DNA from: Gracilimonas sp.
GTDB taxonomy: Bacteria > Bacteroidota > Rhodothermia > Balneolales > Balneolaceae
Reading direction: 5' to 3'
Length of the DNA: 64,000 bases
NCBI RefSeq assembly: GCF_035704785.1
Contig: NZ_DASSWP010000030.1
Coordinates: 17,112 to 81,111, forward strand
The position numbers and the translations under genes were made by a program. The notes under the pieces are model-generated. The model was not told the origin of the DNA and searched no databases. It saw nothing but the letters and a program-made list of their open reading frames with translations. Position 1 is the stretch's first letter. Each line of letters starts with the position of its first letter. Positions 2,590-46,576 of the stretch are shown here, piece by piece.

Positions 2590-5500
2590 ATGAAGGATTC
2601 AGAAATTACAGATCAACAAATGAGCGAAGAAGTCAAAGAAAATACATATTGGAAGAGCTTAAGCGAATTAGCCAATAATAAAGAGTACCAAAAATTTGCT
2701 GAGCGTGAATTCCCTGAAAATGCCACTGAACTGACCGATGGGGTTTCCCGCCGCGGATTCCTCCGTGTTATGGGAGCTTCCGTAGCTTTGGCAGGATTGG
2801 CAGCTTGTCGCCGTCCGGTTCAAAAAATATTGCCATACTCAAAACAGCCTGAAGATGTGGTGGAAGGTGTGCCTTTATTCTATGCAACCGCCATGCCTGT
2901 TCAAGGTAATTTGGTTGGATTGATCGCTGAAAACAACGAAGGACGCCCAACCAAGCTTGAAGGAAATGACCTTCACCCTGCCAGCAAAGGCGGAAGCAGT
3001 ATTTACAATCAGGCGGCCATTCTCGGCCTTTACGACCCTGACCGCTCTCGTTTTCCCTTATATAATGGGAATAAAGCTTCCCTAGAAGATTTTGAAGCGT
3101 TCGCAAGTTCTCATTTTGCAAATACCAGTCAGCGGATCGCTTTTATTTCTGAAGCCAATTCCTCTCCTACCTATAATAGTATAAAGGAGCAGGCGCTTTC
3201 GAAATTCAACAATGCTACCTGGGTTACTTACGAACCTTTCGGTGAAGATAATGTACTTGAAGGGAATAATATTGCTTTCGGAAGCAGGTTACGCGCTTAT
3301 TACAATTTTGAAAGTGCAGATGTCATTGTCTCCCTGGATGATGACTTCATGAGCTCGACACATCCAAACAGTGTTGACTATGCCAAGCAGGTTTCGGCTC
3401 GCAGAAAGGTGACCGATACCAATGGTGAAATGAATCGTATCTACGCCGTAGAAGATTCTTTCTCCCTCACCGGTTCTTATGCTGATCATCGTTTAAAGAT
3501 CAAGGCCAGCCAAATGGAGGGATTTACCTATGCTCTCGCTGCCGCGCTTTCCACCCGAATTAATGGGTTAAATACTTTCAACGGATATAGCAACGAATTT
3601 TCTGATCATCGATGGATCACCGTTCTTGCCGATGAGTTGGCAGCAAACGCCGGAAGTTCTACTCTGTCAGCAGGAGCTCAGCATAAACCTGAAATACACG
3701 CCGCAGTGGCAGCGATCAATCAGGCCTTAGGTAATGTTGGAAACACGGTTAGCTACCTTGAAATTCCTTATACCGATGCACAGAGCAGCACCGCAGCTTT
3801 CCAAGAGGTGGTAGCTGAAATGAAAGCCGGCAATATTGATACGGTTGTTATGGTTGGTGTGAATCCTGTTTACACCGCTTCTGCTCTTGATTTTGGGAGC
3901 GCCCTCTCCAATGTTGAAACCGTGGTCAATCTTTCTGATTACGTAGATGAGACTGCCAAGAAATCAAACTGGCACGTAAATCATGCCCACTTCCTGGAAG
4001 CTTGGGGTGACGGATATTCTTATGGCGGAGCGCTTTCAGTTATACAGCCTCAGATTCAGCCTTTATTTAATGGGCTGAGTGGCATCGAATTTTTAAACAC
4101 TATTGTAAACGGGTCTTTGGAGCAGGGTTATTCCCTTGTTCAGGATACCTTCCGCGGATTTTTCAGCTCCGGTTTCAACAACCGCTGGACCAACATCCTG
4201 CACGATGGTATTGCCACGACGAATAATTTTAATGCCGTAAATGTACGGATAAGCTCCGATTTTGCTTCTGCAATGAATCGGGCTACATCAAATATATCTT
4301 CAACTTCGGGTATTGAAGTTGTTATTCGCCCTGATGCTACTTTATATGACGGGCGTTACGCAAACCTGGGCTGGCTTCAGGAACTTCCTGACCCCATGAC
4401 CAAGATCACTTGGGATAATGTGGCCCTTATGAGTCCTGCAATGGCAAAACGATTAGGTATAGAAAAGCCGGGTCCCGGAAATGATGCCTTTGATGTAGTT
4501 GAGATTACGGTTAATGGAAAAAGTATTGAAATTGCTGCCTGGATTCAGCCCGGTCACGTAGATGATTCCATCACTTTAACAACCGGCTATGGCCGTAAGG
4601 GAATTGGTCGCGTTGCTAGTTCTTACATTGATTACACCGCTGGCGGCGTTGATGTGTATCCGTTGAAAGCAACTTTAGATATGTTTTTTACAGCTGCTGA
4701 AGTTTCAAAAACCGGAGAAACCTACGAAATTGCCTGTGTTCAGGATCACCACAGTCTTGAAGGCCGCGATATGTATCGTCAGGCCTCCCTTTCTGAATAC
4801 AAAGAAAATCCGGACTTCGCCTCTTTTGAATCGGTTCATACTTATCCCGTTCCGGGAATGAAAGAAGCGGCCGAAATGGGTGAAGATGAGCCTATTTCAC
4901 TCTTTGACGAGCAAACCTTCCCTGATTACGAACCACAATGGGGAATGGCTATTGACCTGAACTCTTGTTTTGGTTGCGGAGTGTGTGTGATCGCTTGTCA
5001 GTCAGAGAACAATATCCCTGTGATAGGCAAGAAAGAAGTTAAACGCGGCCGTGAAATGCACTGGATAAGAAATGACCGCTATTACGTTGGTGATGATCCA
5101 AATTCACCGCAAGCCGTTCACCAGCCGGTCCCTTGCATGCACTGTGAGTTGGCTCCTTGTGAGCAGGTTTGTCCTGTTGCGGCAACCACCCACAGCCCCG
5201 ACGGCATGAACCAAATGACGTATAACCGCTGTATCGGAACTCGTTACTGCGCTAATAACTGCCCGTACAAAGTGCGTCGTTTTAATTTCTTCAACTATCC
5301 CAAAGAATATTTAACCACCGGTGACGATCCCGATATCATCCAAATGGCGATGAACCCGGAAGTTACCGTACGTTTCCGCGGTGTAATGGAAAAATGTACG
5401 TATTGCGTGCAGCGTGTTAACCGTGCTAAAATTAAAGCCAAGATAGAAACCGGTTCAGTAATACCGCCGGACGGTGCAGTTAAAACAGCTTGTCAACAAG

Positions 5501-8728: not shown

Positions 8729-9940
8729 ATGAGTCATAAGCCTACAATAACAGATTCTTTACAATTTCCAGCTGACAGCAAAGTTCCTCGTGCCTTATTT
8801 GGGATCGGTACAGTTGGTCTTATTGCTACCATTATAGGTTACTTCTTTGATGCCAATCAGTTTTTCTTTTCGTACTTAGTCAGCTTTACTTTTTTTACAG
8901 GCATAGCATTAGCCGCATTGATCATGGTTATGCTTCACCATATTACCCGTTCCAGCTGGGGAGTTCTTTTTAGACGAATTGCAGAAACTTTATCCGCCAA
9001 TTTATGGATATGGGCTATTTTTATCCTTCCGGTGATTCTCGGTATCCATAATCTATACCACTGGAGTCACCCCGAACTGTTGGACTACTCAAGCTCCGAG
9101 TTTGACAAGATCATATCCGGTAAATCGGCTTACCTGAATTCAACTTTTTTCATCATCCGCCAGGTCATCTATTTTGTGATCTGGGGATATTTGGGCTATA
9201 AGCTTCACAAGGTATCCGTTGAAATGGACAAAACCGATGACTGGGGTCTGACATATTTACTTCGAAAAGTAAGTGCCCCCGGCATCTTGCTATTTGCACT
9301 TACTGTAGCTTTTGCAAGTTTCGATTGGTTGATGTCGCTTGATCCCCACTGGTTCTCTACCATGTTCGGCGTGTATTTCTTTGCGATCAGCTTCCAGGCA
9401 TTATGGCCTGTAATGATCTTACTTGTGTTTTATATGCAGCGGAAAGGACTTCTTGCCAATACTATTCGTCAAGTGCATATCTACGATCTGGGTGCCTGGT
9501 TCTTTGCCTTCACCATATTTTACGCTTATATCGCTTTTAGTCAGTTTTTACTTATTTATTACGCGAATATTCCGGAGGAAACCATTTGGTATTTCCATAG
9601 ATTGGAAGGCGGATGGGAGTTTATAGCGTACAGCTTGTTAATCTTCCGCTTTGCCGTGCCTTTCCTGATTCTCCTGAATCGTGAGGCCAAAAAGAATAGA
9701 ACCATTCTTGGTGGAGTTTCAGTATTGGTACTCATTATTCACTTTGCAGAAATTTATTGGATAGCGATGCCGGCTTTGTACGACCATGGCATTAGCTTCA
9801 GTTGGATGGATATCACAGCCTTTCTTGGATTAGGAGGCCTGTTCTTTGGATTATTCTTCCATACTTTCAAGAAACACAGCATGGTTCCAGAAAATGATCC
9901 TAAATTGGATGACTGTCTCTCTAAATCGTATCATCAATAA
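8729..9940 (+). CDS. actF: Alternative complex III membrane subunit ActF
   Basis: About 10 TM helices; FASFDWLMSLDPHWFSTMFG and YIAFSQFLLIYYANIPEET motifs. Confidence 0.9.
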   Translation: MSHKPTITDSLQFPADSKVPRALFGIGTVGLIATIIGYFFDANQFFFSYLVSFTFFTGIALAALIMVMLHHITRSSWGVLFRRIAETLSANLWIWAIFILPVILGIHNLYHWSHPELLDYSSSEFDKIISGKSAYLNSTFFIIRQVIYFVIWGYLGYKLHKVSVEMDKTDDWGLTYLLRKVSAPGILLFALTVAFASFDWLMSLDPHWFSTMFGVYFFAISFQALWPVMILLVFYMQRKGLLANTIRQVHIYDLGAWFFAFTIFYAYIAFSQFLLIYYANIPEETIWYFHRLEGGWEFIAYSLLIFRFAVPFLILLNREAKKNRTILGGVSVLVLIIHFAEIYWIAMPALYDHGISFSWMDITAFLGLGGLFFGLFFHTFKKHSMVPENDPKLDDCLSKSYHQ

Positions 9941-16106: not shown

Positions 16107-19100
16107 ATGGAAAAAACCGGACCACATAACTCAACCGATAAAGTTCAGAAGCTACTTCATTCAGCTTTTGATACCCTTCTTTCTAAAAGAAGCGGGACCA
16201 TTTTGCTTCGGTCATTTCTGATACTATTTGCCGGATTTACAGCCTTGATCATTGCCGAGAATGTTATCTACCTTTCTATTGTCACAAAGACCACGCTGCT
16301 ATTTTCGATCCTGATCGCTTCGATTACCTCCTACCGGATGGGAAAGAAGGCTTCCAAATCGCTTGAATTCACTGAATTTTATCGTGAATTCAGCCGGAAA
16401 AGCAAGCTTCCTGAACTCAAGGATACTCTTGATCTTGAAAAATCCGGTGGCGGAAACCGCGCGCTGATTGATGCTGCTGTTTTACAGAATCTTAGTAAAA
16501 TTAAAACCGACAGGCTGGAGAATTCTCTCTCTGAATACCTAAGGTCCTCCGAAAGTTATAGCCACTATAAACAGTTTTTGAATTTAGGAGTTGCTGCATT
16601 TATAATTTTAGGGATCACTTCTTTTAATTTTAATAATGCTGCCCAAAGAACTTTTACGTTTTGGAAAGGCTATGAAAAACCTAATCCATTCAGCTTCACT
16701 ATATCTCCCGGTGATATCACTTTAGAACAAGGAACTCCTTTTAAAGTTGATATCGCATTCAAAGGAGAGCTTATTCCCGAAAATACAGTGTTAAGGATTA
16801 AGACCTCGGTTGAGGAAGAATACCGAACCCGTGTTATGGAACATTCTGGAACCATCTTCAGCTCTATTCCTCAGAAGCTGAATAATGATCTGGAATATTA
16901 TATAGAAATGGATGGCTATAAAAGTGAAATTTTCAGTGCCAATGTGCAACTCAGGCCCAGATTCACACAACTTCAAGCTGCTATAATTCCTCCGGTATAT
17001 ACCGAACTCGATTCATCTATGATCTCTTATCCTGTTTCTCAGATCAGGGCATATCAGGGTTCAATATTAAAGCTTTCCGGTGAGCTTAATAAGGAAATTT
17101 CATCTCTACAATTATATTCAGGAAATGAATTTTTAGATCTACCCACCAATCAGGACAGTACCTTCACTTACGATCTGGAAATTGAAGATGCCGATACCTT
17201 AAGGTTCTATATTGAAGACAAAAAAGGGCTTACAAACAAAAACCCTTTCCAGATAATTGTATCTCCACAGCCTGATGAATATCCCCTGGCAGAGATAATA
17301 GAGCCTGAACAAAATCTACAGGAAGTTAATCCCGAAGAGATCAACCTCCTTTATCGAGCTACTGATGACTTTGGACTTACTGCCGCAGCTTTGAGTTATG
17401 AACTCAGAAGAGCTTATACGGAGGAACCCGTAACGGGTACAATATCGCTCAACACTCCTTCAATAGGTAGCTTGAATTCCTACGTTTGGAATCTGAACGA
17501 ACTTAATTTAAAACCGCTGGATGTACTTACATTTTCGATTACTGTTCAGGACAATGACGAATACAATGGATATAAATCTTCCAGTTCACAGTCCATCATT
17601 CTCGAAGTACCTTCACTCGTTGACTATTTTGAAGATATCGATCAAAAAGAAGATGAGATTGAAACAGATCTGACTGACATCTCTAAGGCTTTTGAACAGA
17701 CCCAGGAGCAGTATGAACGCTTTAAAGAACAGATGAAGAATGATCCTGAAAGTACAGGATATGAGGAAAAACGAGAGCTAGAACAGGTTCAAAAGCAGCA
17801 GGAAGAGGTTCAAAAAAGAATTGAAGAACTGAACCAGAAATTTAAAGAGCTTAAAGATGAACTAAATAAAGACGATATGCTTTCTGAAGAGACTCAAAAA
17901 GCATACGATGAGCTTCAAAAGTTAATGGAGGAAATTGATGACCCTGCTTACCGGGAAGCCTTGAGAAAATTGCAGGAACAGATGGCACAAATGAGTCCTG
18001 AGCAGATGAGAGAGGCCATGGAGAACCTCGAGTTTAACGAAGAACTCTATAAAGAACGACTGCAACGAACCATTGAATTATTCAAGCAAATAAAATTAAA
18101 CTCTGATTTGGACAAACTTGTCAAGTCTTTTGAGGATATGGCCCGAAAAGAAGAGGAACAGGCCCAAAGCGATCAAAATCAGCCCACTGAGCTAATAGAT
18201 GAGCAACAGAAAAGGTCGCTTGAAGAGATTGAAAAACTCAAAGAACAAGTAAATTCTCTTTCTGAAAATACTACAGAGAATAATCAACAAGCAGTTAACG
18301 AATATCAGCAAAATACCAATGAAGAGTTAGATCGTTTATCAGAAGAAACAAAAGAGGATAACGAATCAGCATCAGAAGCAGAAAAGCAAGAATCTGAATC
18401 AGATTCTGCAGATAAAAATAATTCGGAAGAACAAGAAGGAAACCGACAACAGAGATATCAGAAATTGGCTGAAGACACTCAAAAGCTCATGGACAGTATA
18501 TACCAAAACCAAATGAATATTAATATTGCAGGACTGCGATATGTGTTGTATTCCCTTCTTAATTTGTCGCTTGAGCAGGAGGACCTGACAACGCTTGCTT
18601 CTTCCACTGAAAACCGAAGTCAGGCATATGTAACTTATGCCCGGGATCAAAGTAATGTGGAAGGTATTTTTACTTCCATCTCGGATTCCCTTTTTCAATT
18701 GTCATCACAGATCCCGCAATTCTCAAATGACATCAACAAAAAGAAACTTGAAGTTAAAGAACGACTTCAACGATCGCTTGAACAAATGTCGGAACGTAAC
18801 AGGAGTCAGTCATCTGTTGCATCAAGGCAGGCTTTAGGTGGAATTAATGAGATCTCATTCATGGTAGCCAATCTGTTGGAACAGCTTCAAAATTCTGAAG
18901 GTGAAGGCGGAGGTGGTGCGGGAGGGATGTCGATGCAGCAAATGATCGAACAGCTTCAACAATCCGGAGAACAGCAGCAACAGCTAAACCAGATGATGCA
19001 GGAAATGATCAATGATATTCAGGGAGACCGGCTTTCTCAGGATCAAATGGAAAGACTGGATCAAATCGCCAGACAACAGAATCAAATTCGAAAACAACTG

Positions 19101-37062: not shown

Positions 37063-38241
37063 ATGCGAGATGTAGTAATAGTATCAGCAAAACGAACTCC
37101 AATGGGCTCCTTTGGCGGAAGTCTTTCATCATTTTCAGCTCCGGAGTTAGGTGCTGCAGCCATCCTGGAAGCAGTTAAATCAGGAGGCATTAAGCCTGAT
37201 GATGTTCAAGAAGTATTAATGGGTAACGTGTTATCAGCAGGAGTAGGTCAGGCTCCCGCCCGGCAAGCTACTTTAAAAGCGGGATTAAGCCAGCGCACTC
37301 CTTCTACCACTGTAAACAAAGTGTGTGCATCCGGCATGAAATCTATAATGATAGCCGCAGACCAAATTCGTTTGGGCGACGCGGATATTATCATAGCCGG
37401 TGGAATGGAGAGCATGAGTAATGTACCCTATTATCTTCCCAAACAACGGTTTGGCGCAAAATACGGCCACACCCAAACAGAAGACGGAATTGTTAAAGAC
37501 GGACTTTGGGATGTTTATAACGATTACCTGATGGGTAACGCCGGCGACCTTTGCGCAAGAGAATGCAACATCAGCCGTGAAGAGCAGGATGAATATGCCA
37601 TCACTTCCTACAAGAGAGCCATTGAAGCTACCGAAAAAGGTTATTTCAAAAATGAAGTGATCAAAATGAAGGTCAAAGACCGAAAAGGAAATGTTACTGA
37701 AGTAGAAAAAGACGAAGAGCTTGATAAGGTTCGTTTTGAAAAAATCCCTCAGCTTCGCCCTGTTTTTGATAAGGAAGGCACAGTTACAGCTGCTAATGCA
37801 TCAAGCATTAATGATGGTGCTGCCGCTGTATTGGTTATGAGCGCCGACAAAGCAAAGGAACTCGGACTTAAGCCTCTGGCTAAAATACTTAGCCATGCAA
37901 GTGCTGCAAAAGCACCCGAATGGTTCACTACAGCTCCTGCCGATGCCATCCCTATCGCACTGAAAAAAGCCGGACTTTCAAAGAATGATATTGATCTGTT
38001 TGAGATCAATGAAGCCTTTTCAGTTGTTGCTCTCGCTAATAATCAGATATTGGAGTTGGATCCTGAGAAAGTAAATATTCATGGAGGAGCAGTAAGTATT
38101 GGTCACCCTTTGGGATGTTCTGGTGCACGAATTATTGTTACTCTGATCCATGCGCTTAAGAGAACAAAAGGCAAATACGGTTGTGCCGGCATTTGTAACG
38201 GTGGTGGCGGAGCCTCTTCCCTGGTTCTTGAAATGCTTTAA
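37063..38241 (+). CDS. Acetyl-CoA C-acyltransferase (thiolase)
   Basis: NKVCASGM, NEAF, GHPLGCSG, CNGGGGA. Confidence 0.95.
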   Translation: MRDVVIVSAKRTPMGSFGGSLSSFSAPELGAAAILEAVKSGGIKPDDVQEVLMGNVLSAGVGQAPARQATLKAGLSQRTPSTTVNKVCASGMKSIMIAADQIRLGDADIIIAGGMESMSNVPYYLPKQRFGAKYGHTQTEDGIVKDGLWDVYNDYLMGNAGDLCARECNISREEQDEYAITSYKRAIEATEKGYFKNEVIKMKVKDRKGNVTEVEKDEELDKVRFEKIPQLRPVFDKEGTVTAANASSINDGAAAVLVMSADKAKELGLKPLAKILSHASAAKAPEWFTTAPADAIPIALKKAGLSKNDIDLFEINEAFSVVALANNQILELDPEKVNIHGGAVSIGHPLGCSGARIIVTLIHALKRTKGKYGCAGICNGGGGASSLVLEML

Positions 38242-38248
38242 TAATATT

Positions 38249-38283
38249 TGAGCCTGCTTTTTTGAGCAGGCTCATTTTTTTTG
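38249..38283 (+). terminator. Intrinsic terminator after the thiolase gene
   Basis: TGAGCCTGCT...AGCAGGCTCA followed by a T run. Confidence 0.85.
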
Positions 38284-38558
38284 TTGACATTATTGGTTCT
38301 CCAACATATCATTACACCAAACAAAAAATCAGATCTGCTATTATATAGAAAACCGTTACTATTCATCTTTTTCACATTTAATAACAAAGGTTCTCTATAC
38401 CCATCTATACAGGTCAATTTCAACACTAAATACTATATCTTATATAGGAATACTGCTACAAAATTTTAAGCATCAACCATACGTAAACTGTAAATAACTC
38501 ACTCGTATATTTAACAAGCTGCTTTTTATCAGTAGTTTGCTTTGCTTATTAATAACCA

Positions 38559-38811
38559 ATGAGGCTCAGACCCGGCAACCCGTTAGATGTTTCTATCCGT
38601 ATATATACTCTCAGTGGAAAGCCGGTGCGACATTTTTGAAAATTAACTCATAGATACAAGTCCGTATGCCAGTATTTCATGGGATGGCCGTGACCGGGAT
38701 TATGATCGCCTGGGTAACAGTACCTATATTTATGTGCTTCAGGTTACAACAGATACCCCGAAAGGAAGACAAATAGCATAACAAATCGAAAAGCTCGTAA
38801 TTATACAATAA
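38559..38811 (+). pseudogene. porU: Degraded C-terminal remnant of the T9SS sortase gene porU
   Basis: Hand translation gives MRL-RPGNPLDVSIRIYTLSGKPVRHF*, then in another frame IDTSPYASISWDGRDRDYDRLGNSTYIYVLQVTTDTPKGRQIA*QIEKLVIIQ*. This resembles the PorU C-terminal domain and lies directly upstream of porV. Confidence 0.75.
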
Positions 38812-38861
38812 CATCGTAACTTAATATTGAATCACTTATATTTATATAAAATTTTAGTTTT

Positions 38862-40022
38862 ATGAAGAAAACAATAGGCTTAATTACAGCAGGATTATTA
38901 TTTCTATTACCTGCTATCACAAATGCACAGGTCGCCATTACGGCGGTACCCTTCCTGCAAATTGAACCGGATTCCCGTGGCGCAGGTATGGGTAATACCG
39001 GTGTAGCCATAGCTGATAACGCTTCAGCTTTATTCTGGAACCCGGCCGGTTTGGCTTTTCAGGATGAAACAAAGCAAGCCAGTATCACGCACTCTAATTG
39101 GCTGGCTAACTTTAACGTAAGTGATCTTTTTTATGATTACGTAGTAGGTAAGTATTATATAGAAGGCATTGGAACCATCGGTGCCCATCTAACCTATCTG
39201 AATTTGGGAGAGCAAGCTCAAACTGGGGAAACTAGTCCTGATGTTATTTCCAGATTTAACAGTTATGAAGTTGCATTAGGAGGCTCATATGGTTACCAGG
39301 TAAATGACAACTTCGCCTTGGGAACCAGTTTACGGCTTATATACTCAAGCCTTGCAAGTGGAGTTCAAACGTCTACTACTATTAGTGCTCAAAAAGTAAA
39401 TCCAGGCAGCAGTGTTGCTTTAGATCTTGCATTCTTATACAGAACAGATCCATTTGATGTAGGAGGACGCAATGCCCGATTTAGCGTGGGGAGCAATCTT
39501 TCTAATCTTGGTCCCGGTATTCAGTACACTGATAATGCACAAAAAGATCCTCTACCTACTGTCCTTCGATTTGGCTGGGCGTTTGACCTCGACCTAGATG
39601 ATGCGGGTATTAACCGAATTACTATTGCCAACGATATCTCCAAAATAATGGCCAGGACCGATCAGTTTGAAGTTCAAGTCGGAGATTCAACTATCACTAA
39701 AACTAAAGCGGTTGGGCCTCTCGAAGCATTATTCACTTCCTGGGGAAGCTTTGAACGTTTTGACGGGCAAAGAAATATCGATGTTGGCCTGATGCAACAG
39801 TTTATGATCGGCGCCGGAATTGAATATTGGTATGCTGATCAATTTGCACTCAGAGGCGGTTACTATTTTGAAGATCCTCAAAACGGCGATCGTGAATATA
39901 TCACCTTTGGTGCCGGCATCCGGTACAATCTGTTAGGTGTGGACTTTAGTTATATAAAAACGCTTGAAACTGATCACCCACTTGCCAATACCTTGAGGTT
40001 CAGTTTGCTCATCGACTTTTAA
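38862..40022 (+). CDS. porV: Type IX secretion system outer-membrane protein PorV
   Basis: ITAVPFLQIEPDSRGAGMG, ALFWNPAGLAF, GIEYWYADQFALRGGYYFE, HPLANTLRFSL. Confidence 0.9.
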   Translation: MKKTIGLITAGLLFLLPAITNAQVAITAVPFLQIEPDSRGAGMGNTGVAIADNASALFWNPAGLAFQDETKQASITHSNWLANFNVSDLFYDYVVGKYYIEGIGTIGAHLTYLNLGEQAQTGETSPDVISRFNSYEVALGGSYGYQVNDNFALGTSLRLIYSSLASGVQTSTTISAQKVNPGSSVALDLAFLYRTDPFDVGGRNARFSVGSNLSNLGPGIQYTDNAQKDPLPTVLRFGWAFDLDLDDAGINRITIANDISKIMARTDQFEVQVGDSTITKTKAVGPLEALFTSWGSFERFDGQRNIDVGLMQQFMIGAGIEYWYADQFALRGGYYFEDPQNGDREYITFGAGIRYNLLGVDFSYIKTLETDHPLANTLRFSLLIDF

Positions 40023-40025
40023 TGC

Positions 40026-43000
40026 ATGCATAATTTAAAGGATTTCTTTAAGAGCATGTTATTTTTTAGCATGCTCTTTCTGTTTTACAATCATAATATT
40101 TTGGCACAAAATGTTTCTGTACAACGTACCCATGCTATTTCCAGTCAACAACCACAGCTAAGTGAAGATTTGAATGCTATCGGGACTCTGAATATTATTG
40201 CTATTATGGTGGAATTCCAGCCCGATAGTAATCGCCTTACATCAGGCACAGGAATATTCGGGACGGACGGAATGGAAGGCCTTCCCTATCTCCAAAATGC
40301 CTCAGATTTTCGGGTCGAGCCTCTGCCCCATGATATTAACTACTTTGAAGCCCACCTGGAATTCGCAAAGAACTATTACGAAAAATCTTCCGATGGCCAA
40401 TTAACTTTAAACTACCAAGTACTTCCAGATATCTACCGTCTCCCCAAAAAGATGGAAGAATATTCGCCAATTGGAGAAACATTTACTTACGAAAAAATAG
40501 CTGAACTTGCCCGCGATGCCTGGCAACAAGTTGAAAACGGAGTGAATTTCGACAATACCGGCCTTGATCCGGAAAACACAGCCTTCATTATTTTTCATGC
40601 CGGTGTGGGGCGGGATATTGAGCTTACTGGAACCAACCTTGATATCACTCCGTATGATATTCCTTCACTCTATCTTCGAAAAGAACAACTCGGCAATTTA
40701 TTAGATGAACCTTCATTCAATGGTTTTCCGGTTAATGACGGGTCCTTTAGAGTTACTAACTCATTGATCATACCTCGCACGGAGTCACGCCGAGGACTTG
40801 ATATTCAAGACATTGAGTTCGTGTTTCCACTTTCAATTAATGGGTTGTTAATTGCTTCCATTGCCAGCCATTTAGGTTTACCGGATCTATTCAATACTGA
40901 AACGGGAGATCCCGGAATCGGGCGGTTTGGGCTAATGGATGGTGCCGGTTTCTTTGCATACAACGGTCTGCTTCCTCCCGAACCCTCAGCCTGGGAAAAA
41001 ATATACCTAGGTTGGGAGACTCCTTTTATTATAGATAAAAATATATCCGGGGATATTTCACTCCCGGCAAGTTCTCTTGCCCTATCCAACAGTATTGCCA
41101 AATATGAACTGTCGGATTTTGAATACTTTTTGATAGAAAACCGACACCGAGACCCTGATAATAATGGGATTACCATAACCATTCGTAAACCGGATGGTTC
41201 CGAAGTTCAGCAAACTTTTACCAATCAGGATATGGCATTCGTTTTTCAGGAAGCTGATTTTGATAAATTATTAGAGGCAGGTACTTTCGTAAATGCTACC
41301 AATTTTGATTTTAGTCTGCCGGGCGGGTTATATACCGGTGGAGATCAAAATGATCCTTCTGACGATCGGAATTTAAATGGGGGTATTCTGATATGGCATA
41401 TTGATGAGTCTGTAATTAATACTCAACTAGAAAATGATCGCGTGAATGCGGATCCTGACAGAAGAGGTGTGGATCTGGAAGAAGCAGATGGAGCGCAAGA
41501 TATTGGACAACCTGTTCCCGGTGCACTAAATAACACTGCTGCATTTGGGACTGCTTTTGACTTTTGGTGGTCCGGTAATGATTATCGTGTGATTTTAGAA
41601 ACAGGAAGTGAAGTCAGCCTTTACGAAAACAGATTTAGTTTTGATACATATCCTGATAATCGAAGTAATTCCGGCGCGCCATCCTTTTTCGAATTATATG
41701 GCTTCTCCGAAAATCAACCTATAGCTACTTTTAATATCCGCCCGGCAGAACCAAATACTAAATTATATACCTCAGGATTTACAACTCAGTTAGACACTTC
41801 GAAAAGTTACTTTACTGCAGAAGACGACCCCTATTTCAAATATTTCCCTTTTTCACTTTCCATTTATGAGACACCAACTGATACCTTTCTGATCGTACCT
41901 GATCAGGAATCTGTAACAGCAGTATCCATTTCTGATCCTGTAAATATGCAATATCAACTTACGGATGTCTCCGTACAGCAACCCTTTATAGCTGATAACC
42001 TTATCCTGGCGACTAAACCGGGTAATGGCTCCGGTAGTATTGATATAGCTTCATTGAATTGGAATACAACCTCTTTTGACACTGTCTGGACTGCCACACT
42101 CCCTCAAAACAAAGGTTTTTTAAGTTCCCAAAATGGGGAAATTCTACATGCCGATCTTACAGCTTCCGGCCTGGACGCTGGCAACGGAGACGTTGTATCT
42201 GTAAGTACCACTCCTTCTCAGAGATCGGAGATCATAAATGGTGAGTTTTCCGAAGCATCAAATTCAGGGGTGGTTTTTTCTTCTATACCAAACTTCACCT
42301 TTCATCCGGAATCTATTCAAGGGAGGCTTTATACCGGCTCTATTCAGTTAGGAAACCGGATGATATTTTACGTTTTTGAAGATAATAAATACTCAGTTAT
42401 AGACCCGAATTTGGCTGATCCTGAATTAACAATTTTTGAAGAATCCAATGCTGAATGGCCGGCAATACTTGAGAATGCCTCAATTTTACGGGTCGACAAA
42501 ATTAATAACCGCTTGATCGGGATCAATAAAATCGGAGGGACTCAAAACTTTACACCTATTCAGGCCCCTGCAGGAATAAAATTTATTGGCACACCCCTAT
42601 TCACTGACCTCATTAGTTCAGATAGTGAATACGCCTCACTCGTCATAGGGCAAGACAGCCTTTCGATGAATATCTATGCCTACCGAGAAGGTGGCAGATC
42701 GGTGAATGGGTTTCCCTTATATATAGGAAGAGCAGTATCCGGCAATGCACAACCGATTCATCCTATTATCTACCAAGGCACTCTTTATGCTGTCAGTCAT
42801 AAAGGAGCGCTGAAATCCTGGAATCTGACGCAAGTCACAGATACAAAATGGAGCAGCAGGTACGGAAATAATACTTTTAATAAAGTCTCTGCACGTGTAA
42901 ATGATACTTTCCCTGGAAATCCTTCCGGTTTTGGAGTGTTAAATGAAGCCGAGACCTATAACTGGCCAAACCCTGCCAATAATGAAACTAATATTCGATT

Positions 43001-43217
43001 TCAGATAGCTCCACCGGGCGGAATAATTCAAGTAACGGTAATAACCATGAGTGGCCGTATTATCTTTGAGGAAACCGTTACCTCACCCGGAGGCTTTCCG
43101 CAGGAAATTCTGGTTAATACTCAGAACTGGAGCAGTGGCGGATATGTAGCACGGGTAAAGGCTACTGTTGACGGTAAGACTGAAACCAAACTCATCAAAA
43201 TTGGCGTGGTACACTAA
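40026..43217 (+). CDS. M6/immune-inhibitor-A-like protein with a degenerate zinc site and a C-terminal T9SS sorting domain
   Basis: IIFHAGVG, LGLPDLF, GRFGLMDGAG, SAWEK, YFLIENR, GILIWHIDE, GVDLEEADG; ends YNWPNP...KIGVVH. Confidence 0.75.
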   Translation: MHNLKDFFKSMLFFSMLFLFYNHNILAQNVSVQRTHAISSQQPQLSEDLNAIGTLNIIAIMVEFQPDSNRLTSGTGIFGTDGMEGLPYLQNASDFRVEPLPHDINYFEAHLEFAKNYYEKSSDGQLTLNYQVLPDIYRLPKKMEEYSPIGETFTYEKIAELARDAWQQVENGVNFDNTGLDPENTAFIIFHAGVGRDIELTGTNLDITPYDIPSLYLRKEQLGNLLDEPSFNGFPVNDGSFRVTNSLIIPRTESRRGLDIQDIEFVFPLSINGLLIASIASHLGLPDLFNTETGDPGIGRFGLMDGAGFFAYNGLLPPEPSAWEKIYLGWETPFIIDKNISGDISLPASSLALSNSIAKYELSDFEYFLIENRHRDPDNNGITITIRKPDGSEVQQTFTNQDMAFVFQEADFDKLLEAGTFVNATNFDFSLPGGLYTGGDQNDPSDDRNLNGGILIWHIDESVINTQLENDRVNADPDRRGVDLEEADGAQDIGQPVPGALNNTAAFGTAFDFWWSGNDYRVILETGSEVSLYENRFSFDTYPDNRSNSGAPSFFELYGFSENQPIATFNIRPAEPNTKLYTSGFTTQLDTSKSYFTAEDDPYFKYFPFSLSIYETPTDTFLIVPDQESVTAVSISDPVNMQYQLTDVSVQQPFIADNLILATKPGNGSGSIDIASLNWNTTSFDTVWTATLPQNKGFLSSQNGEILHADLTASGLDAGNGDVVSVSTTPSQRSEIINGEFSEASNSGVVFSSIPNFTFHPESIQGRLYTGSIQLGNRMIFYVFEDNKYSVIDPNLADPELTIFEESNAEWPAILENASILRVDKINNRLIGINKIGGTQNFTPIQAPAGIKFIGTPLFTDLISSDSEYASLVIGQDSLSMNIYAYREGGRSVNGFPLYIGRAVSGNAQPIHPIIYQGTLYAVSHKGALKSWNLTQVTDTKWSSRYGNNTFNKVSARVNDTFPGNPSGFGVLNEAETYNWPNPANNETNIRFQIAPPGGIIQVTVITMSGRIIFEETVTSPGGFPQEILVNTQNWSSGGYVARVKATVDGKTETKLIKIGVVH

Positions 43218-46200
43218 TGAGGCAACTGAAGCATTTATTGGCTATTTGTACTCTGGCTGCTTTGCTTCCTGCTATAGGTATGGCCCAAACGGATGTTCAG
43301 CTTTACGACTACCCCAATAATCACCTGGATTGGTTTACTATTGAAAGTGAGCATTTTCTCGTTCATTTCCAGCAAGGAAACAGCCGTACTGCTCAAATAG
43401 CTTCCCGAATAGCAGAAGAAATCTACCCCCCTATTACCAACCTGTATCAATATGAACCGGAAGGTAAAGTAAGCATTGTTCTAAAAGACCGGGAAGATTA
43501 TTCAAATGGAGCTGCTTACTTTTTTGACAACAAGATCGATATTTGGGTTCCTGCTCTCGATACACCATTACGGGGAACTCATAATTGGCTCAGAAATGTG
43601 ATCACGCATGAATATGTACATATTGTACAAATTCAGAAGGGAATGAAGCGATCAAGAAAGATACCTGCTTTATATTTGCAATGGCTTTCATATGAAAATG
43701 TACGGAGACCGGATGTTCTATATGGCTTTCCTAAAGGTATTATTACAATGCCTTTCGCTACCGTAAATATTCCGGCCTGGCTTGCAGAGGGCACAGCCCA
43801 ATATCAAACTGCCGGACTTTTTTATGAAACATGGGACAGTCACCGGGATATGATCTTAAGGACGCGTATTCTCACTGATACTTATTTTACGCTTGATGAA
43901 ATGGCCATATTTTCATCTAAATCAAGTTTGGAGAGGGAAATAGTGTACAATCAGGGCTTCGCATTTGTGATATATTTAGCGAATCGCTTTGGTGACCCGG
44001 TATTGCGGAAGATAACAGAAGCTTTAAGCCAAAAAGGAGTCTATTCTGTAAATAAAGCTATTGAAATTGCCACTGGCATCTCCGGAGATCAGGTTTTTGA
44101 AGACTGGATTGCTGAACGAAAGACATTTTATGCAAAAGCGATCGAAACCATAAACCCAACTCCTTCAGTAACAGTTGAGCCAAAAGGTTTCTTCAATTTT
44201 TATCCACAGCTTTCCCCTGATGCAACCAAGCTTGCGTATCTATCCAACAAAGGAACTGATTACGGCTTACTTTCACTTTACCTCAAAGATGTAAGCGGTA
44301 AAGAAACTGAGATAGCTACAGTCTATAACTTTGCACATCAAGACGGTCAAACTCATTTAAGACAAAGCCAACCGGTATTGAACTACCTGGAAACCTCTTT
44401 TTCTTTTTCTCCAACCGGAGAAAAAATTACCTATGCCATCAACAAAAAAAATAAGTACGGTGAGCGATACCGGGATATTTTTATTTATGATATCGAATCA
44501 CACCAAAGCGAAAGGCTCACAAAAAGTGCACGCATACAATTTCCAAACTGGAATAATAATGGGGATAAAATAGCAGCTGTTCAAAATTCACAAGGCACGC
44601 AAAACCTTGTTCTACTTTATCCTGAGCATCCGGATTCGGTAACTCAGCTTACCCAATACAGCAACGGGGAGACTATATTTACCCCTCAGTGGTCTCCGGA
44701 TGGATCTAAGGTCTATTTTTCCACTTCAGATCTGAACAATCGCAACATCCACATTTATGACATGGATTCGGGTAAGATCACTCCTTTACTCAATGATCCT
44801 TATATCGATTACCGAGATCCTTTCCCCGGGCCAAATGGAGAGTATTTATACTATTCATCTGATTTAGAAGGGATCTTCAATATTTACCGCTTACCCCTGA
44901 ATGGAGGAGAACCTCAAAAGCTTACTGCGGTTATAGGCGGTGCCTTTATGCCTTACATCAGTGATAACGGCCAATTATATTTTTCAGAATATCTATTCGA
45001 TGGATATAAGATCAAGACTGTAGATATAGCCGATCTTTTAGCTCATTCGGAAATGGGATTCTATGAGCCCGAGTATTCAGATGATATCAGCGTAGCCGGG
45101 ACCGATCTTAGTTATATCTACAAGCTGAATGATTTCGATGACTCAGATATTCGTCCCTTTCCTGAAAAGATCCGGGCTATCTCAGATACTGGAACCTATC
45201 ATTTTACAATCAGCAGTATTAACGACAATGAAGATCGAAGCTATAGAAAATATGAAGATACCTATTCAAGTTTTAGTTTCTTTCCTGTTCTTCGCTTTGA
45301 TAACTACTCTCAGAAGTATGGCAACAACGGCTCTTTAATTAAAAATGGAAAGTTTGGGAAGCTCGGGCAAAACCTTTTGCGTGATGCAAAACCCGGGGTC
45401 TACTTTTCTTCCCGGGACGTGATTGACAAGCTGAGCCTTTTTGGCGGCCTGATGGTAGGATTAGCATCACAGCCCGCAGATGGTATCGGTGAGTTCTTTA
45501 GGCCTGATCGCTTATTTGGGCTCGATCGGGATGCCTTTTTAATAGCAGAACATCGCGGGCTTCCCTTTATCGAAAGAAGCTGGTCTCCAACCGTTGCCGT
45601 TGAAATTTATAATATGAGAAGAAATGTAGCCGATGGGCTCTCCATTGAAGAATTTCCATGCACATCCTGTCTTCCGGATACCATCAGTACTGACATTGCA
45701 TATGACATTTGGGAAGCCGGTTTATTCTTTCGCAGCAAATTAAGCAGACGCAGCCTCCTGGAGTTAGGTGTTTCATATAGCCCTTATACCGTATCTACCG
45801 ATAACTTCTATTCCCGTGAATTACAACAACAGGTAAGCGGTTCATCTTCAGAATATTTTCGGGGAACTACATTATCCGCTTCTTATACCTTTGATTATTA
45901 TTTGTACTCTAATGATGCTGATATTGCCCCTTTGGGACTAAAAGGTTATTTAAGATATCAATATCAACCGTCAAAACTATTGGAAGAATATAAAATTGAT
46001 GGTGGTGCCCTAAAACCCGTCTATAAGAGTTCAGATAATCACTCAACTGAATTACATCTTCGTTATGGTTTAAAAACTATTGGAGATCAGGCGTTTCAGG
46101 CCCGGATTCGAGGTTTTCATTATTTCAATGATCCCGGTGATTCATTCTATTCAGATTACGTAGGTGGTTTCCTGGGAATGCGCAGTTATCCTTATTTCGC

Positions 46201-46576
46201 AATTGGGGGAAGCACTACCGGGTTTACCAGCTTATCCTGGTTTGCTCCTGTATATCGGGGCATTAATAAGCAAGCCGGTCCATATATCTTTGATAAAGTA
46301 TTCGCTCGTTTTTTCTTTGAAACAGGAAACGGCTGGAGAAGCCCCTATGATACCGGCAACAATTTAAAGTCAGGTGTTGGAGCTGAGCTGAGAGTAGCTA
46401 TGAATGGATACTATTTATTTCCCCTTAAATTTTTTATCAGCTCATCATACGGTTTTAATGAATTTACACTGACACTACCGGACGATTTTATCACCAACTC
46501 ACAAAGTAATCGGGTATCTTATGGACGCGAGTTGCTATTTCATTTCGGCTTAACATTTGACTTTGAACTGCTATGA
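43217..46576 (+). CDS. Exported protein with a gluzincin (HEYVH) domain, a PD40/TolB-like propeller and a probable C-terminal beta-barrel
   Basis: Signal peptide; VITHEYVH...AWLAEGTAQY; PQLSPD, PQWSPDG, PFPGPNG repeats; aromatic beta-strand C-terminus. Confidence 0.7.
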   Translation: MRQLKHLLAICTLAALLPAIGMAQTDVQLYDYPNNHLDWFTIESEHFLVHFQQGNSRTAQIASRIAEEIYPPITNLYQYEPEGKVSIVLKDREDYSNGAAYFFDNKIDIWVPALDTPLRGTHNWLRNVITHEYVHIVQIQKGMKRSRKIPALYLQWLSYENVRRPDVLYGFPKGIITMPFATVNIPAWLAEGTAQYQTAGLFYETWDSHRDMILRTRILTDTYFTLDEMAIFSSKSSLEREIVYNQGFAFVIYLANRFGDPVLRKITEALSQKGVYSVNKAIEIATGISGDQVFEDWIAERKTFYAKAIETINPTPSVTVEPKGFFNFYPQLSPDATKLAYLSNKGTDYGLLSLYLKDVSGKETEIATVYNFAHQDGQTHLRQSQPVLNYLETSFSFSPTGEKITYAINKKNKYGERYRDIFIYDIESHQSERLTKSARIQFPNWNNNGDKIAAVQNSQGTQNLVLLYPEHPDSVTQLTQYSNGETIFTPQWSPDGSKVYFSTSDLNNRNIHIYDMDSGKITPLLNDPYIDYRDPFPGPNGEYLYYSSDLEGIFNIYRLPLNGGEPQKLTAVIGGAFMPYISDNGQLYFSEYLFDGYKIKTVDIADLLAHSEMGFYEPEYSDDISVAGTDLSYIYKLNDFDDSDIRPFPEKIRAISDTGTYHFTISSINDNEDRSYRKYEDTYSSFSFFPVLRFDNYSQKYGNNGSLIKNGKFGKLGQNLLRDAKPGVYFSSRDVIDKLSLFGGLMVGLASQPADGIGEFFRPDRLFGLDRDAFLIAEHRGLPFIERSWSPTVAVEIYNMRRNVADGLSIEEFPCTSCLPDTISTDIAYDIWEAGLFFRSKLSRRSLLELGVSYSPYTVSTDNFYSRELQQQVSGSSSEYFRGTTLSASYTFDYYLYSNDADIAPLGLKGYLRYQYQPSKLLEEYKIDGGALKPVYKSSDNHSTELHLRYGLKTIGDQAFQARIRGFHYFNDPGDSFYSDYVGGFLGMRSYPYFAIGGSTTGFTSLSWFAPVYRGINKQAGPYIFDKVFARFFFETGNGWRSPYDTGNNLKSGVGAELRVAMNGYYLFPLKFFISSSYGFNEFTLTLPDDFITNSQSNRVSYGRELLFHFGLTFDFELL

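Follow-up and report, generated by a model that had tools for sequence, protein, structure and literature searches.

The window analysed here is a stretch of 64,000 nucleotides (nt) from Gracilimonas sp. (Balneolales; Balneolaceae), positions 17,112 to 81,111 of contig NZ_DASSWP010000030.1, and this text concerns what has become there of porU, the gene for the sortase of the secretion system known as type IX (T9SS), directly upstream of porV. The usual order, found in nearly all congeners, is a metB-like gene, a thiolase gene, porU (~1300 amino acids, aa), a gap of 50-70 nt and porV; in the window the spacer between thiolase and porV measures 620 nt, and positions 38507-38811 within it are a non-functional relic of porU. 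The genome that carries the relic (G000; G and L numbers denote the genomes and the relatives' loci compared) is a metagenome-assembled genome (MAG) of 2.78 Mb in 243 contigs with completeness rated 100%, and the relic lies in the interior of an 87-kb contig. In a PorV-based retrieval the nearest PorV, at 85% identity, came from the G. sediminicola group. The locus comprises the following features.

37063..38241 (+): acetyl-CoA acetyltransferase (thiolase), the usual left neighbour of porU, by NCBIfam and Pfam matches; order thiolase-porU-porV in L021-L043
~38250-38283: thiolase terminator, a hairpin and T-run read from the sequence
38507..38509 (+): ancestral porU start codon, now ATA, where relatives read ATG CTT AAC AAG CTG (MAFFT, 6 relatives)
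38507..38579 (+): 5' porU remnant, ~24 signal-peptide codons, through the junction repeat (alignment to relatives)
38559..38639 (+): chance 26-codon open reading frame (ORF; ATG AGG CTC ... TGA) in the old signal-peptide region, sharing the sorting-domain frame
38571..38579 (+): deletion junction, a single copy of the 9-nt repeat CCCGGCAAC (alignment with relatives)
38580..38811 (+): 3' porU remnant, a PorU-type C-terminal sorting domain, ~77 codons past the repeat (~81 with the repeat)
38666..38776 (+): broken small +1-frame ORF overlapping porU, MPVFHGMAVTGIMIAWVTVPIFMCFRLQQIPRKEDK and a stop; intact relatives end in VTVLIFMCFGLQQIPRKEDKQQSKSKSS and a stop
38812..38861 (+): porU-porV spacer with the conserved block CATCGTAA-TTAA...TGAATCACTTATATT; same spacer in L021-L060
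38862..40022 (+): porV, intact, 386 aa (NF033710, 292.5 bits against a cut-off of 250)
40026..43217 (+): M6-like inactivated metalloprotease (M6i), T9SS-dependent, with a type A sorting domain; cargo or accessory
43217..46576 (+): 1119-aa envelope protein, Peptidase_MA-like, with TolB/PD40-like repeats (profile matches)

The porU relic and its deletion

The original prediction, made from the letters of the window, had placed two PorU-like C-terminal peptides in the spacer, broken by a frameshift and three stops, and these are present as described. Frame 1 from 38559 translates to MRLRPGNPLDVSIRIYTLSGKPVRHF and a stop, frame 2 to a product ending in SWDGRDRDYDRLGNSTYIYVLQVTTDTPKGRQIA, a stop, QIEKLVIIQ and a further stop; the interrupting codons are TGA at 38637, TAA at 38644 and TAA at 38779, and the old porU stop is TAA at 38809-38811. 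When joined, the peptide matches positions 1018-1095 of the PorU model NF033707 (1095 positions; curated cut-off 420 bits) with E=2e-12 and 45.5 bits, and the generic T9SS type A sorting-domain model TIGR04183 with 13 bits only. A match so far above the generic one argues that the remnant comes from the C-terminal domain of PorU itself and not from an arbitrary cargo tail, as had been predicted. Furthermore, PorU of G. halophila aligns with the scar by tblastn at 66% identity over its last 73 residues. Compared with a complete PorU, the scar lacks the whole-protein score, the catalytic region and an intact frame, and keeps the C-terminal domain and the place upstream of porV. The C25-type peptidase region with its catalytic Cys/His dyad is missing by both alignment and tblastn; a search of G000 with Peptidase_C25 (PF01364) gave no match, the positive control being likewise silent.

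The deletion was mapped by BLASTN and MAFFT against ~15 congeners with thiolase-porU-porV synteny. Positions 38000-38553/38579 align with relatives from the end of thiolase to porU codon ~25, the 5' remnant being 70-83% identical to nt 1 to ~73 of their porU, and positions 38570-39000 align with the last ~81 porU codons, the spacer and porV. The two alignments share CCCGGCAAC (38571-38579), which relatives carry, exactly or with one mismatch, at codon ~22-25 and again at codon ~1222-1225, i.e., the repeat stands at both ancestral breakpoints and one copy is left at the junction. The 5' breakpoint falls between GCCCGGCAAC and TGAAAG in L027 and L030, after the signal peptide, and the 3' breakpoint between CAGCCCGGCAAC and CCACTTGA (which begins CC) in L029, at the start of the sorting domain. 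Between these 9-nt direct repeats ~3.6 kb were deleted and codons ~25-1224 lost. Since the two repeat copies are read in different frames (GCC CGG CAA C and CCC GGC AAC), the fused gene was never in frame and was dead at once. The predicted multi-kb deletion joining the 5' end of the gene to its last codons is therefore borne out, for ~81 codons, while the junction is out of frame and the start named for it was mistaken. ATG 38559, which had been taken for the original start, is a chance ATG in the old signal-peptide region. The ancestral start is at 38507-38509: the start region reads ATGCTTAAC in relatives and ATATTTAAC in the window, with ATA TTT AAC AAG from 38507, and what had been read as a promoter-like box, TATATT, is this mutated start region.

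Further lesions followed, namely ATG to ATA at the start, a 1-nt insertion (+1) in the T-run 38633-38637, CAA to TAA at 38644-38646 and GAG to TAA at 38779-38781. The remnant deviates at 14 of the 155 alignment columns that are invariant across 14 PorU-bearing congeners (leave-one-out controls, 0-6), which argues that constraint on it has gone. Relative to the saturated synonymous divergence between species, the deletion appears young. In Logan, four soil-metagenome runs from two studies gave contigs that span 37800-39300 at a depth of 10-24x; the scar is identical in all four, three of the runs show no difference from the window over this span, and the fourth (X4) has in addition a minor variant contig of low depth in porV.

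Loss of the attachment complex in Gracilimonas and the Balneolales

No intact porU was found elsewhere in the assembly. NF033707 matched G000 at sorting-domain positions only, with a best score of 34.8 bits in another protein, and tblastn with PorU returned the scar and no other copy; among 31 relatives, 27 have a full PorU above the cut-off. The predicted loss of PorU is thus confirmed, and it extends to two further proteins. PorZ (PF21544) gave no match in the PorU-lacking genomes G000, G015, G016 and G028 and was positive in the PorU-bearing G001 and G017, and tblastn found no trace of PorZ in G000. PorQ was above its cut-off only in the PorU-bearing genomes. In G000 a syntenic porQ pseudogene remains (C50:15510-16172), with a 1-nt deletion after the signal peptide that shifts the frame and, by comparison with the intact 326-aa PorQ of G001, an in-frame internal deletion of ~240 nt (~80 codons). 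G000 thus lacks the sortase, its lipopolysaccharide-presenting partner and the anchor of that partner; with porU and porZ missing and porQ a pseudogene, the attachment complex seems to have been lost as a unit.

As to the place of porZ, in the close PorU-bearing relative G017 the gene lies immediately 3' of the 16S-23S-5S ribosomal RNA (rRNA) operon (L112; G017:C1:2581000-2598000). The matching G000 contigs, C114 and C103, end inside rRNA genes, with another gene after the 5S, so that the porZ locus is unreadable there.

Four Gracilimonas species lack porU and carry scars at its locus: G000, G015 (a marine ALOHA MAG), G016 and G100, the last being the cultured type strain G. qinghaiensis Q87T (PMC12162075). 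Their remnants are as follows.

G000: porU 5' ~24 codons and 3' ~81 codons
G015: 3' ~88 porU codons only, behind unrelated repeats
G016: porU 5' ~32 codons and last ~6 codons
Q87 (G100): porU 5' ~40 codons, no 3' end

The breakpoints differ in all four scars and none can be derived from another, which argues for independent losses of porU. A tree of metB, thiolase and PorV likewise places each PorU-lacking genome beside PorU-bearing genomes and requires four losses. The G015 allele also occurs, 97% identical, in a TARA contig. On the 5' side of the G015 scar (L034 ~9400-9700; TARA contig, L134 ~2850-3150) porU is replaced by an insert of ~300 nt that holds, in G015 and TARA, two copies of a ~40-nt repeat, ...CGATCTGATGGATT[A/G]CCCATCTGA[C/T]CGATGG..., and this insert is possibly a small mobile or repeat element that took part in the deletion.

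The same pattern was found when the survey was widened to 283 species genomes of the Balneolales, 201 of them high-quality. PorU occurs in 169 and PorZ in 160 of the 283; 155 genomes have the two together, 109 have neither and 19 are discordant, most of these being incomplete MAGs. PorV was found in 264 of the 283 genomes (196 of the 201 high-quality ones), and 100 of the 283 have PorV without PorU or PorZ, entire genera included (one of 27 species, one of ~40). In Rhodohalobacter, for example, the order is porV-M6i-1119aa-DUF5683-PASTA with no porU alongside. The original prediction had held the adjacency of porU and porV to be conserved; porU does lie directly upstream of porV in Porphyromonas gingivalis and in most Balneolaceae, but across the order the adjacency fails in these 100 genomes.

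Loose first-look counts were also made of candidates in the surveyed genomes. Those without PorU and PorZ had fewer sorting-domain candidates (~2-14 against 4-44 in PorU-bearing genomes) and likewise fewer candidates for barrels resembling PorV, PorQ or PorP (1-8 against 6-23).

A secretion system that retains PorV, SprA and cargo

It had been predicted that porV and T9SS cargo remain, and they do. Besides the intact porV (292.5 bits), an iterated hidden Markov model search of G000 found nine intact ORFs with a C-terminal sorting domain of type A or CHU_C, and on four of five rescanned ORFs the domain (Por_Secre_tail or CHU_C) was confirmed. The cargo includes an alpha-amylase, an HExxH protein, a 1742-aa surface protein and the M6-like pseudoprotease adjoining porV (NF052323, 1267 bits, with a Por_Secre_tail match). 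SprA is a full-length ORF of ~2430 aa in five of the six genomes tested, the PorU-lacking G015, G016 and G028 among them; in G000 two pieces at contig ends account jointly for model positions 19-2318 of TIGR04189 (1381.8 bits on C211 and 122 bits on C153), the gene being split only by the contig ends. Pairwise synonymous divergence (dS) of G000 is saturated against every relative, and comparisons therefore used non-synonymous divergence (dN) and the closer pair of G015 and G. halophila. For PorV, dN is 0.096 between G000 and L022 and 0.115 for a PorU-bearing pair, and dN/dS is 0.05 for G015 against G. halophila; by these measures PorV in G000 appears to evolve no faster than in PorU-bearing relatives.

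Searches for the motor were uninformative. The GldM models TIGR03517 and PF12081 were silent in all Balneolales genomes tried, PorU-bearing controls included, the GldK model TIGR03525 gave only generic ~275-aa FGE-sulfatase matches in genomes with and without PorU, and a hunt for a gldKLMN-like operon by gene lengths and transmembrane patterns returned housekeeping genes only (EgtB-like, phytoene desaturase, MgtE, ArgRS, PurH). Since the models fail in PorU-bearing relatives too, this silence says nothing about whether the motor is retained.

With regard to the expression of porV, the block CATCGTAA-TTAA...TGAATCACTTATATT survives in three of the four deletion alleles, that of G016 included, and positions 38812-38861 are probably a promoter or leader of porV, in which case porV could be expressed without porU. 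An Rfam search of 38200-38950 returned nothing but sub-threshold chance matches over the thiolase terminator, and a search for RNA-sequencing runs containing the locus returned none. The gene of the 1119-aa protein belongs to a porV-linked module that is also retained in the PorU-less Rhodohalobacter.

Taken together, we consider it very probable that the window holds a porU relic produced by repeat-mediated deletion, within a loss of the attachment complex, and that the remaining T9SS is a viable configuration. In an ancestor whose locus had the order usual for Gracilimonas, thiolase-porU-porV, illegitimate recombination or replication slippage would have taken place between the CCCGGCAAC copy that closed the signal peptide and the one that opened the sorting domain, excising ~3.6 kb with the entire C25-type catalytic region. 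The out-of-frame join would have killed the gene, whose start was lost afterwards and into which a 1-nt insertion and two nonsense codons came; with porZ lost and porQ decayed, the whole surface attachment complex would be gone. If P. gingivalis genetics are a guide, cargo would still be exported through SprA to PorV, its sorting domain would no longer be cleaved, it would no longer be linked to lipopolysaccharide, and the small cargo set would be held non-covalently on PorV at the surface or shed unprocessed. We infer uncleaved or PorV-held cargo for this lineage, in keeping with the original suggestion of a sortase-less T9SS, which withstood both the test of the specificity of the peptides and the search for another porU. 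As the loss is recurrent and fixed in whole genera, it points to a viable alternative configuration rather than to terminal decay, and a T9SS without the attachment complex is apparently a recurrent and stable state.

Several points weigh against this reading. The absence of porZ in G000 is drawn from a fragmented MAG, albeit one that agrees with three further PorU-lacking genomes, two of them in 4-8 contigs. PorU loss is clearly detrimental in P. gingivalis and Cytophaga hutchinsonii. In Q87 most of M6i and of the 1119-aa gene is missing as well, which looks like continuing erosion there: 3' of porV (L040, 11351-11893) M6i is reduced to residues ~74-151 and the 1119-aa protein to its last ~70 residues, a second deletion of ~6 kb having removed most of the porV-linked module. 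Finally, because the PorK, PorL, PorM and PorN models are uninformative, the statement that the T9SS still works draws on the integrity of SprA, PorV and cargo only.

Some of these points would also be expected if the whole T9SS were decaying, the loss of porU, porZ and porQ being the first stage and the other genes not yet degraded, as the original prediction had offered in second place. The fresh porQ pseudogene and a porU scar ~6-9% diverged at formerly invariant sites point to a recent event, the cargo genes of G000 are few (nine), the core motor genes were not detected and Q87 shows the further deletion of M6i and the 1119-aa gene. However, the motor models are equally silent in PorU-bearing relatives, PorV persists without PorU or PorZ in 100 of 283 genomes and in entire genera of 27 and ~40 species, Rhodohalobacter retains porV-M6i-1119aa-DUF5683, SprA is open over ~2430 aa in G015, G016 and G028, cargo ORFs are intact and the dN/dS of PorV is 0.05 for G015 and G. 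halophila. With SprA and PorV intact in G000 itself, and PorV not accelerated, general decay is the weaker alternative and we regard it as unlikely. Slightly less likely still is that another enzyme removes the sorting domain, the candidate being the Peptidase-MA-like 1119-aa outer-membrane protein of the porV operon. This protein has a Peptidase_MA_2 or HExxH-type match, and porV-M6i-1119aa-DUF5683 is retained in the PorU-lacking G000, G015 and Rhodohalobacter; yet the same module stands beside PorU in all PorU-bearing relatives, so that it was not acquired upon the loss, the protein bears no sign of sortase or transpeptidase chemistry, and Q87 dropped the module and has porV.

The 3' piece of porU could, alternatively, have been retained for a function of its own, as a regulatory leader of porV or as an overlapping membrane-peptide gene. 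Two independent deletions (G000; G015 and TARA) spared the last ~245-265 nt, this is the most nucleotide-conserved part of porU across the family, and the ATG of the small ORF is kept in G000 and its frame open in G015 and TARA. We nevertheless think such a role very improbable, since G000 and G015 have 14 and 16 changes, respectively, at the 155 invariant sites against 0-6 in controls, the G000 peptide carries L>P and G>R in its transmembrane helix and has its tail cut by a premature stop (TAG), the scars of G015 and TARA are ~95% identical, below the 97.4% of the flanking genes, and G016 and Q87 deleted the stretch entirely and kept porV. An artefact of assembly or binning, with porU present in the organism and collapsed or lost from the MAG, would be conceivable in a genome of 243 contigs, but it is scarcely credible for a scar mid-way in an 87-kb contig, found in the same deleted form in independently assembled contigs from four runs of two studies, with a clean microhomology junction followed by later point lesions and with analogous deletions in three congeners, one a cultured type strain.

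Work on the T9SS has been dominated by P. gingivalis, where PorU, PorZ and PorQ are regarded as essential for cargo maturation. The scar resembles PorU of that species (PG0026/PGN_0022) in the last 78 NF033707 positions and in its place directly upstream of porV, and differs from it in that only ~24 N-terminal and ~81 C-terminal codons are kept, in a broken frame. In porU mutants of P. gingivalis, cargo with uncleaved sorting domains accumulates at the surface, bound to PorV (PMC5562754), and a porU deletion mutant of Flavobacterium johnsoniae still glides and secretes SprB and RemA (PMC11611037). Laboratory mutants in porU, porZ or porQ of P. gingivalis, C. hutchinsonii and F. johnsoniae have the same genotype, with porV and the translocon present, whereas the loss in Gracilimonas is natural, takes all three genes together and is found in at least four congeners and about one third of the species of the order. 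Fixation on that scale implies no strong fitness cost in these halophiles. The mandatory parts of a T9SS in T9GPred are GldK, GldL, GldM and GldN together with SprA and SprE, PorU, PorZ and PorQ not being among them (PMC10515386), and a review has the attachment module occur 'in many species' (PMC10202324). The absence of the module is therefore not forbidden, and our findings are consistent with minimal definitions of the T9SS in which it is an add-on.

A literature search found no description of natural PorV-bearing lineages without PorU, PorZ and PorQ, and none of tight co-loss of PorU and PorZ or of a T9SS in the Balneolales. What is new here is a natural variant of the T9SS, a modular loss of the attachment complex that recurs across an order. 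The repeated natural removal of exactly PorU, PorZ and PorQ argues that the shuttle-translocon and sortase modules are separable, and the retention of PorV argues for a role of PorV that is independent of PorU. Matched cultivable pairs are at hand (G. qinghaiensis Q87T without PorU; G. halophila KCTC 52042, G. tropica DSM 19535 and G. mengyeensis DSM 21985 with PorU) in which the fate of sorting domains without a sortase can be asked. Moreover, the near all-or-none occurrence of PorU and PorZ (155 both, 109 neither) is a usable survey marker for covalent surface anchoring.

A small reading frame overlapping the end of porU

The last ~135 nt of porU are overlapped by an ORF in the +1 frame that is open in 50 of 50 loci of PorU-bearing Balneolaceae, with its ATG conserved, and that is unannotated (intact examples are L022 ~9802-9936, L026 and L075). 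Its predicted products are peptides of 40-45 aa, 37 of them distinct, each with a single strongly hydrophobic helix and a tail rich in lysine. Among 32 family-level porU sequences, in which synonymous sites are otherwise saturated, the identity of third positions in porU is 0.27-0.47 along the greater part of the ~1300 codons and rises to 0.80-0.96 in the final 45; at ~150-165 codons from the end of porU (alignment columns 1245-1259) there is a lesser island, at 0.72 and falling to 0.53-0.55. The zone of high identity runs from the ATG, which overlaps the Y-A codons of 'SYASISW', to 5-11 nt (in one locus 20) before the stop, and variation within the overlap is concentrated at porU first positions, i.e., the wobble positions of the +1 frame. 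In other families of the Balneolales the +1 frame is full of stops, and the small ORF is confined to Balneolaceae. It occurs only inside porU, with no copy elsewhere in G000 or in the loci without PorU, and in PorU-less genomes it has been deleted with porU or is a decaying remnant. The peptide belongs to no Pfam family, and a search of 5.8 billion predicted proteins gave one match, the TARA remnant.

An antisense small ORF (38677-38814, minus strand) was also considered as the source of this conservation and rejected: beyond Gracilimonas its start is not conserved, and the constraint is in phase with the +1 frame of the sense strand.

On balance we lean towards the last ~135 nt of Balneolaceae porU being double-coding, with an overprinted gene for a putative single-pass membrane peptide (MPVFHGMAVTGIMIAWVTVLIFMCFGLQQIP and a K-rich tail) born in the sorting domain. 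Its restriction to porU, and its loss or decay where porU is missing, suggest a small subunit or regulator of the attachment complex. Same-strand overprinted genes of bacteria show the same hallmark, suppressed synonymous variation confined to the overlap; in contrast to those known genes, the candidate gene of Balneolaceae encodes a putative peptide without a family. If real, it would be a rare and clear case of bacterial overprinting and a candidate new component of the T9SS, and the 100 species with PorV and no attachment complex would offer a natural system in which to test such a part.

At the other end of the gene, synonymous conservation is raised over the first ~87 nt of porU as well (window 38507-38579), with a genus-level third-position identity of 0.76.

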